This document shows positions 15,001 to 18,000 of a stretch of 63,473 bases of DNA, in pieces. Each line of letters starts with the position of its first letter. The stretch's first letter is position 1. Source of the stretch: Chthonomonas calidirosea (lineage in GTDB: Bacteria > Armatimonadota > Fimbriimonadia > Fimbriimonadales > Fimbriimonadaceae); contig CAMAPH010000013.1 of the NCBI GenBank assembly GCA_945859975.1, forward strand, positions 1 to 63,473, written 5' to 3'. The position numbers are program-made.

Positions 15001-18000
15001 GCAACGCGGCGAAGAAAGCTAAAGACTTTGCGCGAGCGGACGAAATCCGCAAGCTCTTGACCGATGAAGGCATCGAGCTTCGCGATTCCCCCGAAGGCAC
15101 GACCTGGACTCGAAAGCCGACCCTTTAGAAGGATCGGCCTTCGTAGTCTCGAATCAAGCCCACGACTTTTCCGATAACGCGTGAACCTTCTCGGTCGACT
15201 GGGATGGGCGCGTACTTCGGGTTGCTGGAAAGGAGCTTGATGGAACCGTTCGGTTCGTAGTTGATCCGCTTAACGGTGGCTTCGTCCCCGAGCAGGAACG
15301 CAACGATGTCCATGTTGCGCGCATTGGTTTGTGGGCGAATCACGACGAGGTCGCTTTCGAGGATTCCGTCGCCGATCATGGAGTCTCCGATGACGCGAAG
15401 AAGGAATGCGTTGTCTGTGTCTTTAACCATTCCAGGTGGAACTGGGATCATCGCGTCTACGTGTTCCTCGGCCAAAATAGGTTGGCCAGCGGCAATGGTT
15501 CCGAGCAGGGGAAGCTGCAGAATGCCCGCGTTAGGTTGAAATTCGGGGTGAACGACCTTGATCGATCGCGGAGTGTTCGAGCGATTGATGTACCCTTTTC
15601 GTTCTAAAGCGTCTAGGTGTACAGTAACGCCGCGAAGCGATCCGATCTCAAATTGCTTGCCAATTTCTCGGATCGACGGAGGGAATCCTTCCTTCGCGAC
15701 GTAATCCCGAATGCACGCGAGTATCTCTTCTTGCCGCTTGGTAAGTCCTTTTGCCATGGCTACGTAGACGCATGATACACGCTTTTTGTCTACCTGTCAA
15801 GGCAACCTGTCATACTTTTTTCTAAGTTCGCCCGCGAGGGTGGAACTCCGCCAAAATGAGTTTGGTTTGCTGACCTTAGTAGGGAGCATTTTGGCGATAC
15901 GAGTTCCCAAGTTGTCGGTCCAGTACAAGGTGATTTAGGTTGTCGATTTCAAAATTTCAAGAGATGTTCATGGGCAAGGGCTGCGTGGCCTTTGTCAGCG
16001 TGGGAATGGCAATGGTCTTTCTGGCCGGCGTCGTTGGTCAGTGCACTCGTGGTGCCGGCGTTGCTGAGCAACAGAACAATGTTCCGGCCCGAACGGTCGC
16101 GACGATTTCGGGCAAGCCATTGTCAGACGAAGTTGTTCTGAGAACGCTGGATACTCAGAAGGCTCAGATGGCTCAGTACATGCCATCGGGCTTCCCGCCG
16201 GAGCAAGAGGCCGGAATGGCGGGGCAAACCATCAACACTTTGTTGCGCCAAGTTGCATCTCGGGCGATTGCCGAAAAAGAGAAAGTAGACCTTTCGGATG
16301 CGGCGATCACCAAGCACGCCGCCGAGCAGCTCGATAAAGCCGTCAAAACGGAAGTTGACAAACTCATTTCCGAAAAGAAGCTCAAGCCGAACCCAAGTGC
16401 CGCTGATGTTGACAAGGCCATCAAGGCAAGTTTTGGCCAGACGGTAACCGAAGTCCGAACTGCGCAGACAAAGAACCTGGAGGAATCGCTCAAGGATCCG
16501 GCGCGCAAGGAAACTTTGCTGAACTCAGTTGCCGAGCAACTTCTCCTCGCCAGCTACGCCGAGAAGGTTGATGCATCGCCAGCCGCAATCAAGCGCAGCT
16601 ACGACGTGATCAGCGCAAAGCGTATTTTCCTCATCAACAGCGCAGCCACCGACATCGCCGCGCAAGCGACCAAAATCGCGGGCGAGCTTAAGGGCGGCCT
16701 GAAGTTTGAGGAAGCGATGAACAAGTATTCGCAAGAGCCGGCTCAGCCAGGCAAGACAGTCAGCGACAACCTGACGTCGGTTTCCGGCCAGCAGCTCACC
16801 CAAGAGGCATATGCGCCTCTGGCGAGCTTGAAAGCGGGTGAAGTTTCACCGCCAATTCGAACTCCAGAAGGCATCAGCATCTACAAAGTGTTGAGCGTGA
16901 AAAACGAAGCCCCTGCTGATTTCGAGAAGAAAAAGGCTGATTACGAAAAGACCTTCCGCGAGACCCGGGCCCGACAGAAGCTGGACGCGCAAGTGGACGA
17001 ACTTCTCAAGAGCGGCGAAGTCCGCTGGCAGAACAAGACGATCGAGGCTCTTTACGACCTTGGCCAGCTTAGCTTTGCGACCGACGCCACCCAGCGCAAC
17101 GCAAAGCTCAAGAAAATCGCTGCTGCCGGAAAGGAAGGCGCGGAGAAAGGCGAAGCCGCCGACATCAAGATCGGTGCCCTTGTTTACTATGCGGCCCTTA
17201 ACCAGCTCAGCATGACGGCGAGCGCCACGGAGCGCGCCGAACTTGCTCCGCAGATCGCGGATGCCGTTACGAAGCTGCTCCAAACGACCGAAGACTTCAA
17301 GCTTCGCGTGAAGCTGATCGACGCTGCGATTGAGGCGAAGAATGCGGCCGAGGCAACGGACAACCTGTTTAAGTCTGCGCAGTACAACAGCGACTACAGC
17401 GCCGCTGGGCAAGCGGTATACGGTGAAATGCAGGCGAAGTTCAAGGAACTGAAGGACAAGAAGCTGCTCGTTGCCGAAGGCGAAAAGCAGATCGAGGCCG
17501 AATTCCAGCGATGGCGAAAGGAAAAGGTCGCTTACGAGAAGGCTGAGGCGGAAGCTAAGGCTGCTGCCGAAGCAGAAGCGAAGAAGAATCCAGCGCCCGC
17601 AACGGGCGCAAGCAAATCGCCTGCGCCAGCCGCAGGCAACGGTACGCCGAAGTGAGCGAACCGCGGCTATCGGTGGTTTGCACCCCGATCGGAAATTTGG
17701 GCGACCTTTCCGATCGGGCGAAGCAGACCCTCACCGACGCTGCGGTTTGGATTGTTGAAGACAGCCGCGTATCCGGCAAGTTGGCGCAACACCTCGGAAT
17801 CAAGCGGCCCATGAAAGTGCTCAACGACCATTCCTTATCGGGAGTGGTCGAAGGGTTGGTGGATCTGATTCGCCAAACCGGACACGTTGCGGTTCTCTCT
17901 GACGGCGGGGCGCCTACGGTGAGCGATCCAGGCACTTTGCTCATTGATGCCTGCCACGACGCCGATATTCCGATTGAAGTGATTCCCGGCCCCAGCGCGG

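Follow-up and report, generated by a model that had tools for sequence, protein, structure and literature searches.

The palindrome GTAGAC-N4-GTCTAC is almost certainly a genuine operator, and the protein that reads it is very probably LexA. Judged by comparative sequence analysis, the box, whose half-sites tolerate GTATAC, would serve as operator for a derived clade of LexA with the recognition helix SLRG(V/A)T(V/I)H, and, as far as the literature was searched, it is the first SOS operator found for Armatimonadota. Its association with DNA-damage genes, which a genome-wide survey's note had claimed, holds both in de novo motif discovery and against shuffle controls.

The lexA promoter and the distribution of the box

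The window, that is the whole stretch of 63,473 nucleotides that was analysed, contains lexA, its promoter and its two neighbours:

13608-15128, plus strand: cysS, convergent neighbour of lexA, not part of the finding
15125-15757, minus strand: lexA, 210 aa, with Pfam LexA_DNA_bind and S24 domains and a TIGR00498 match above cut-off
15764-15769, minus strand: right half-site GTCTAC, 2 nt 3' of the -10 hexamer, covering the inferred transcription start
15772-15777, minus strand: TATCAT, -10 hexamer of the lexA promoter by consensus match
15788-15793, minus strand: left half-site GTAGAC, directly 3' of the -35 hexamer
15795-15800, minus strand: TTGACA, -35 hexamer of the lexA promoter by consensus match only (-35 and -10 together 11/12 consensus, 17-nt spacer)
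15940-17655, plus strand: SurA/PPIase-like gene, divergent from lexA and its usual neighbour, not part of the finding

The lexA product matches TIGR00498 with 198.6 bits against a cut-off of 110.95, combines an N-terminal winged HTH (PF01726) with a C-terminal S24 peptidase, and retains the cleavage site Ala90-Gly91 and the catalytic pair Ser126/Lys163, which align with solved LexA chains. It is the sole LexA-type S24 protein found in the genome, the second S24 match being a signal peptidase, and homologues in Fimbriimonadaceae records show 100, 74 and 68% identity. The recognition helix, SLRGVTVH (residues 40-47), is identical in all of the 30 best-scoring family loci, and the SurA/PPIase-like gene adjoins lexA in 26 of 30 loci. 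The promoter reads TTGACA, g, GTAGAC, ..., TATCAT, gc, GTCTAC, with the ATG 7 nt on; the half-sites, 18 nt apart, flank the -10 box just as the survey's note had described. An N4 box with fewer than three mismatches was not found anywhere in the window, where 15 sites at three mismatches compare with 14.9 expected. In two lake metatranscriptomes of relatives (contigs, 5% of words), the lexA and surA contigs end either side of the promoter, from which no conclusion is drawn.

Among the family lexA loci, the 30 best of 114 were compared after removal of two near-identical relatives, and in all 28 remaining loci GTAGAC is found within 200 nt of lexA, mostly directly after the -35, in agreement with the earlier figure of 30 in 30. 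The spacing of 17-18 nt between GTAGAC and GTCTAC, previously given for 12 of 30 loci, was seen in 16 of 28; a full N4 box, previously given for one of 30 loci, was found in none of 27, the right half carrying 4-6 mismatches at the N4 position in each of the 28. Classical autoregulation by a full box is thus not seen in the family. An N3 form is present in 14 of 27 loci, where it shares bases with the -10 hexamer and may simply result from it. The split half-sites around the -10 probably act as two weak sites that would allow basal LexA. In two other families (genomes G207 and G198) lexA has a box with N4 spacing and one mismatch.

Across the genome it is the position of the sites and not their number that is remarkable. 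The N4 box occurs with no exact, seven one-mismatch and 39 two-mismatch sites, and each of the other spacer lengths gives 0-6 one-mismatch sites; exact or one-mismatch numbers equal or fall below those of controls, and genome-wide counts were therefore rejected as evidence. All seven one-mismatch N4 sites nevertheless lie at gene starts, taken from a longest-ORF model, as compared to 8 of 50 pooled over 14 other spacer lengths. They precede nrdJ, dinB, a 138-aa gene, uvrA, a capsid operon, imuB/mpg and a glyoxalase gene, in agreement with the targets that had been named before, as identified here by Pfam and NCBIfam. The two-mismatch sites do include positions upstream of recQ, pcrA, recG, rmuC, an SLT gene and a PBP1a gene, as had been listed, but just 9 of the 39 are near gene starts and most are noise. 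A variant with a 2-nt spacer, GTACAC-AT-GTCTAC, is indeed present at the recA promoter, together with an N4 site with three mismatches.

A matrix seeded with the motif and built from 54 of 87 recA, uvrA and dinB regions of relatives ranked the sites of this genome in the order capsid operon, 138-aa gene, imuB/mpg, rmuC, dinB, nrdJ, glyoxalase, one intragenic site and uvrA, the recA site scoring 13.1 bits. Seven of its eight top matches lie at gene starts, while 12 column-permuted matrices mostly gave 0-3 and one reached six of eight. Explanation of the motif as a restriction site (GTMKAC) was rejected, neither marked avoidance nor excess being observed.

The 87 upstream regions came from the 30 best-scoring loci per gene (recA and uvrA, each matched in 49 genomes, and dinB, matched in 45), about one genome per genus, from which the genome under study (G000) had been removed. 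Unseeded dyad counting in these regions returned GTAGAC in 62 (4.2 when shuffled) and GTA-N7-GTC in 44 (2.6 when shuffled), which together rebuild GTAGAC-N4-GTCTAC without any contribution from G000. At up to two mismatches the N4 box precedes dinB in 26 of 29 relatives, uvrA in 13 of 29 and recA in 11 of 29, as compared to 0.05-0.15 in shuffles; 24 of 29 relatives have it before the 138-aa HTH gene as well, and 17 of 29 before the capsid operon, and over all five gene sets the shuffles gave 0.05-0.2 and other spacers 0-4. The recA frequency accords with the 10 in 30 claimed before, and the enrichment at uvrA is upheld, albeit at a lower frequency than the 16 of 20 then given. The boxes overlap or follow the -10, or are placed in the spacer that separates it from the -35, a placement suggestive of repressor geometry.

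Genome-wide counts across the family are not above chance. Exact matches, which had been claimed for 26 of 31 genus genomes, were found in one of 11 genomes of the same genus; across the family they occur in 19 of 121 genomes, and the reversed control pattern in 18 of 121. The claim for recA is likewise confined in range: outside the order the box stands before recA in only 1 of 15 SLRG genomes, and genome-wide one-mismatch counts there are 0-5 (control 4-16).

The protein that reads the box

The box and the recognition helix of LexA change together. In a survey of the phylum, in which the best lexA match was taken from 40 of 88 lexA-positive genomes picked to span families, GTAGAC or GTCTAC was found upstream of 14 of 19 SLRG-type genes as against 2 of 21 others, whereas a GAAC/TGTTTG-type pattern, defined after the sequences had been seen, was found upstream of 0 of 19 and 15 of 21, respectively. 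The family matrix, too, is GTAGAC-N4-GTCTAC and not the Firmicutes-type consensus.

The same exchange is visible at the promoter of the 138-aa HTH gene. A profile search gave matches, many of them weak, in 47 of 111 phylum genomes, and of 30 loci returned, 24 were compared after six previously used family genomes had been dropped, locus L445 being added. A perfect GAAC-N4-GTTC was present in 8 of the 24 and in L445, with one mismatch in a ninth, and all ten genomes have a Firmicutes-type SS(S/P)STVH LexA, three of them also a divergent second LexA. The new box is exact in G207 and G139, has one mismatch in G192 and G064, and takes a GTATAC-rich form (12 bits or more) in G198 and in six of nine genomes of family f15; the lineages of all these genomes carry SLRG LexA. 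Exceptions are three f15 genomes that score low and G178, which has neither box. Within a single family, f22, two genomes (G151 and G175) keep the old box and G207 has the new one, and the six genomes with both LexA types are divided three to three between the boxes. The two LexA types form deep sister clades (support 99/98), and the co-variation of box and helix therefore comes close to one evolutionary event. With the HTH gene preceded by the classical LexA box in one lineage and, where the helix is new, by the new box in another, LexA reading both is the best explanation.

On this reading a LexA dimer bound over the -10 region or the start site, or in the spacer from -35 to -10, would block RNA polymerase. 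Upon DNA damage, RecA filaments would trigger self-cleavage of LexA, thereby releasing dinB, imuB/mpg, uvrA, recA, nrdJ and rmuC and probably also recQ, pcrA and recG. Cleavage would also free two promoters of a phage-derived head module, those of an operon comprising the HTH gene and a TPR gene and of the protease-capsid-neck operon.

The genome-wide survey's note had itself raised the doubt that another repressor might be responsible. Such a separate protein would bind the N4 box, run the damage response and touch lexA through its half-sites; DdrO, PafBC and DriD are damage-response regulators of this kind in other bacteria. The doubt keeps some ground in the missing canonical N4 box at lexA of the family, and in G000 weak sites (12-14 bits) are seen at GntR and Fur genes. 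It is much reduced by the HTH promoter, which switches with the LexA helix and bears GAAC-N4-GTTC where LexA is of Firmicutes type, and by the near-perfect N4 box of lexA itself in G207 and G198. Neither a WYL regulator, thereby rejected as the binder, nor a second LexA-type S24 protein was found in G000 (96% complete), and we consider a separate repressor improbable. Natural loss of lexA cannot discriminate between regulators. With retention of surA taken as the criterion separating true loss from an assembly gap, G040 and G073 (1.5 Mb, 97% complete, AT-rich) kept surA and gave no lexA match, and the box was absent from the four repair promoters concerned (recA, uvrA and dinB of G040 and dinB of G073); these genomes are strongly reduced and would have lost other regulators too. 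Three further genomes, G028, G080 and G108, were rejected as cases of a box without LexA, as surA is also missing, which points to assembly gaps; this check covered these three and left out G085 and G086 (86-88% complete).

Two other explanations carry hardly any weight. The 138-aa protein, for which the Atlas suggests an HTH fold (score 0.96) and whose homologue has PHROG sigma-factor matches, might be an autoregulated binder, its own boxes being among the strongest sites; its distribution led to its rejection and makes this role most unlikely, as no homologue was found in 23 of 61 family genomes, the box (up to two mismatches) persists in 11 of those 12 that are part of the dinB set, and orthologues in other families lie behind GAAC-N4-GTTC. 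That the motif arises from the composition of promoters or from coding is scarcely credible either. It is true that GTAGACA resembles TTGACA, that GTATAC overlaps TATACT, that genome-wide counts do not exceed controls, and that many dinB sites follow a possible ATG/GTG start and could encode V-D-x-x-S/L-T, but several dinB sites have no preceding start codon (L148, L160), the genome shows no excess of the hexamers (observed/expected 1.0-1.1), and a fixed 4-nt spacer with palindromy recurs in five gene sets that are unrelated, at frequencies far beyond those of dinucleotide shuffles.

A phage-derived head module among the probable targets

The two strongest boxes of the genome appear to control the HTH gene, g01015, and the protease/capsid/neck operon. 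The gene and the operon rank with the best-conserved targets and are parts of a single phage-derived module:

C9:1792-2208: g01015, 138 aa, phage-like HTH resembling sigma-70 region 4 (Atlas), followed by a TPR gene; box in front
C25:39920-40696 and four further genes: capsid (protease-capsid-neck) operon, box in front
C25:39920-40696: protease, first gene of the operon (homologues: phrog_976 and PF10123)
Capsid operon: decoration protein (phrog_1731)
Capsid operon: Mu-type major capsid protein (phrog_371, PF10124)
Capsid operon: 128-aa protein, its model resembling phage neck adaptors (pLDDT 85.5)
Capsid operon: 99-aa protein, like the stoppers lambda gpFII and SPP1 gp16 (pLDDT 86.4; E 0.002-0.06)
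26 kb away from the capsid operon: terminase and Mu-type portal (PF06074) genes, one of each, without a box

For the 128-aa model the best structural match is middling (Z 8.8, rmsd 5.8, 100 aligned; HK97 gp6 Z 7.7), but neck proteins make up almost all of the top matches; with Foldseek neither the adaptor nor the stopper had a match below E 0.001. An Atlas search with the N-terminal extension of the protease was uninformative.

Among 61 family genomes 36 gave a match for the protease, 38 for the HTH gene and 40 for the portal; all three markers occur together in 36 and none in 21, two genomes lack only the protease and two have only a different portal type. An HTH match was absent from all five f8 genomes. 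The module is mostly single copy and is dispersed among as many as three loci, some 1 Mb from one another, the markers of G043, for example, lying at 1.67, 2.58 and 2.69 Mb of one contig, while at L445 it is contiguous (HTH, terminase, portal, protease, decoration, capsid, adaptor and stopper, with no tail). The flanks read, in which part of the ORFs was annotated, hold housekeeping neighbours, and no transposase, integrase, replication or tail gene was recognised among recurrent neighbours. The nearest phage capsids share at most 36% identity, and a peptide-pattern scan of IMG/VR, a weak search, gave no relative. Two capsid records are titled Chthonomonas; their lexA coordinates match the family-f1 genomes G083 and G104, and no claim is made for that class. 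For the five head-operon genes of one pair of close relatives dN/dS is 0.02-0.14 at dS 0.35-0.66, and the head module is, in this pair, apparently under purifying selection.

The module comprises chromosomal packaging and head genes (terminase, portal, protease, decoration, capsid, adaptor and stopper) without an integration or replication module, and is thereby a candidate for an SOS-controlled gene transfer agent (GTA). We tentatively entertain, with more doubt than conviction, that a head machine of Mu descent, ancient, dispersed and apparently without a tail, may be a standing member of the SOS regulon in many Armatimonadota, in which LexA cleavage would free both a sigma-region-4-like activator and the capsid operon, cells would package their own DNA in stoppered heads, and LexA control would have been kept through the complete change of operator; this would amount to a new, directly SOS-induced kind of GTA.

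The module could just as well be something other than a GTA, namely a compartment made of protein, a particle with a DNA-protecting or lytic role, or the slowly decaying remnant of a Mu-like prophage, a prospect that we neither favour nor discount. In keeping with this, of the two tail families searched in G000 neither tape-measure (PF10145) nor baseplate J (PF04865) was present, no recurrent tail gene was seen near 30 capsid genes, no small terminase was identified and no lysis gene was linked to the module; the 21 family genomes devoid of all three markers fit it as well, as does a modest mirror-distance (Mantel) correlation with RecA (r of 0.48 for the portal, n=14, and of 0.37 and 0.23) that is near zero with dinB. 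The terminase, portal, protease, capsid, adaptor and stopper genes are all intact, however, and this together with low dN/dS, mostly single copies and dispersed loci argues against decay, while retention of terminase and portal favours DNA packaging.

Relation to known systems

Literature on a LexA motif of Armatimonadota was not found among open-access sources (supplements, subscription papers and RegPrecise/CollecTF being outside the scope), as had already been the outcome of the survey, and the term 'armatimonad' is absent from the accessible part of PMC8565304; novelty of the box is thus probable. A description of the head module was likewise not found in the literature searched. In the portion available, PMC8597652 tables one Fimbriimonadales MAG with an 'incomplete' 7.1-kb portal/head/capsid region, which is possibly this module.

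New LexA motifs appear regularly, and it is the visible swap of operators and the boxed head module that add interest here. The conserved capsid module, exposed via the motif, is one of the most tightly boxed targets, and if DNA-filled particles form on damage, SOS would be directly linked to gene transfer or to donation of DNA for repair outside Alphaproteobacteria. Two LexA helices, two boxes and one orthologous promoter, together with transitional genomes holding both repressors, represent a rare natural experiment, and two proteins and two probes make the route of duplication and takeover directly testable.

With the Mu-like phages, such as Faecalibacterium phage FP_Mushu, the module has the capsid family (phrog_371/PF10124) and the portal (PF06074) in common, but the identity does not exceed 36% and the transposition, integration, replication and tail genes are not recognised among its recurrent neighbours. 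The alphaproteobacterial GTAs (RcGTA, and the Caulobacter GTA with RogA and GafYZ; PMC9632790 and PMC10883770, as far as their accessible text goes) likewise consist of chromosomal phage-derived packaging and head genes at several loci, with a small regulator that is encoded separately and controlled by a LexA-like repressor, and in Caulobacter a cascade from repressor to activator to head genes is described (PMC9632790, accessible part). They differ from the present candidate module in that the latter has a Mu-type capsid and portal with no tail module found, and in that its LexA has intact catalytic residues, which RogA, according to the same sources, does not; the putative HTH activator is unrelated to GafA by the tests applied.

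The closest relative of the box itself is GAAC-N4-GTTC, the established LexA box of Firmicutes and Actinobacteria (PMC3323433, accessible part), which other Armatimonadota use at the orthologous HTH promoter. Both are palindromes with a 4-nt spacer and an inner AC-N4-GT core and belong to the same repressor architecture, whereas the new box has outer GTAG/CTAC instead of GA/TC, a longer informative half-site, a split site at lexA and the LexA helix SLRGVTVH in place of SS(S/P)STVH. As in other changes of LexA motif, turnover leaves the core of the regulon (recA, dinB, translesion polymerases) in place, and the route of duplication followed by takeover, described in the available text of PMC8565304, fits the genomes found here with both LexA types. 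The new box equals none of the known LexA motifs compared, and old and new are seen at one orthologous promoter, within one phylum and even within one family.

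Head module and its variation among relatives

The strongest copies in the Chthonomonas calidirosea genome of the box GTAGAC-N4-GTCTAC, the predicted SOS (LexA) operator of the Fimbriimonadaceae, were found at two promoters of a phage-derived head module, which is of Mu type with dispersed genes (loci L005, L314, L380 and L003):

C25:37786-40696, minus strand: protease, decoration, capsid, adaptor and stopper genes
C25:10915-13291, minus strand: terminase and portal genes
C9:472-2208, minus strand: genes for HTH (a sigma-70-region-4-like protein) and TPR proteins

No tail for this module was found with PF10145 and PF04865 in this genome, and no tail gene recurred in the surroundings of 30 capsid genes. 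The head protease of many homologues, as at L381:10722-10950, carries an additional N-terminal segment of approximately 60 aa with a GPGYRG motif, which is missing from the C. calidirosea protein and for which an Atlas search was uninformative. The capsid-adaptor interval recurrently holds one or two small hydrophobic ORFs of 80-110 aa in many genomes (L381, L385, L387, L426), possibly encoding holin-like proteins and not present in C. calidirosea. At L445 and L447 the interval is occupied by a GDSL lipase/esterase.

Other boxed genes

C2:147863-152073: nrdR-nrdJ locus (L001)

At this C. calidirosea locus nrdR directly precedes nrdJ and the box sits between the two; nrdJ lies downstream of the exact box in 3 of the 19 exact-match loci. 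Exact boxes also stand upstream of a gene resembling a Panacea/SocA antitoxin, a transposase similar to that of IS1595 and a TraD-like/HTH pair (L065, L074, L075); the host's box may here serve mobile elements.

Genomes without a lexA match

Two Fimbriimonadaceae genomes of genus g40, G040 and G073 (1.5 Mb, AT-rich, 97% complete), have neither lexA nor, at the repair genes read, the box; both retain dinB, and G040 retains recA and uvrA. They look like reduced lineages, possibly host-associated. At E 1e-20 lexA was matched in 0/4 genomes of family f10, 0/5 of f17, none of those listed for f33, and was without a match in 6/9 of f5, and it is possible that in f10, f17, f33 and part of f5 lexA was lost or LexA is very divergent.

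Operator drift and the LexA helix

Genome G190 encodes both LexA types of the phylum (SLRG and SS(S/P)STVH helices), and upstream of its recA (L231) an AAAC-N4-GTTC site is directly followed by a GTAGAC half-site, which could represent a transitional operator. At the HTH promoters of family f15 (L485-L496) the box has drifted toward GTATAC-N4-GTATAC, despite which the LexA helix there is unchanged. In an alignment, the recognition helix TPRGALLH of the LexA in PDB 3K2Z, presumably from Thermotoga maritima, is similar in its R-G to the SLRGVTVH of the family.
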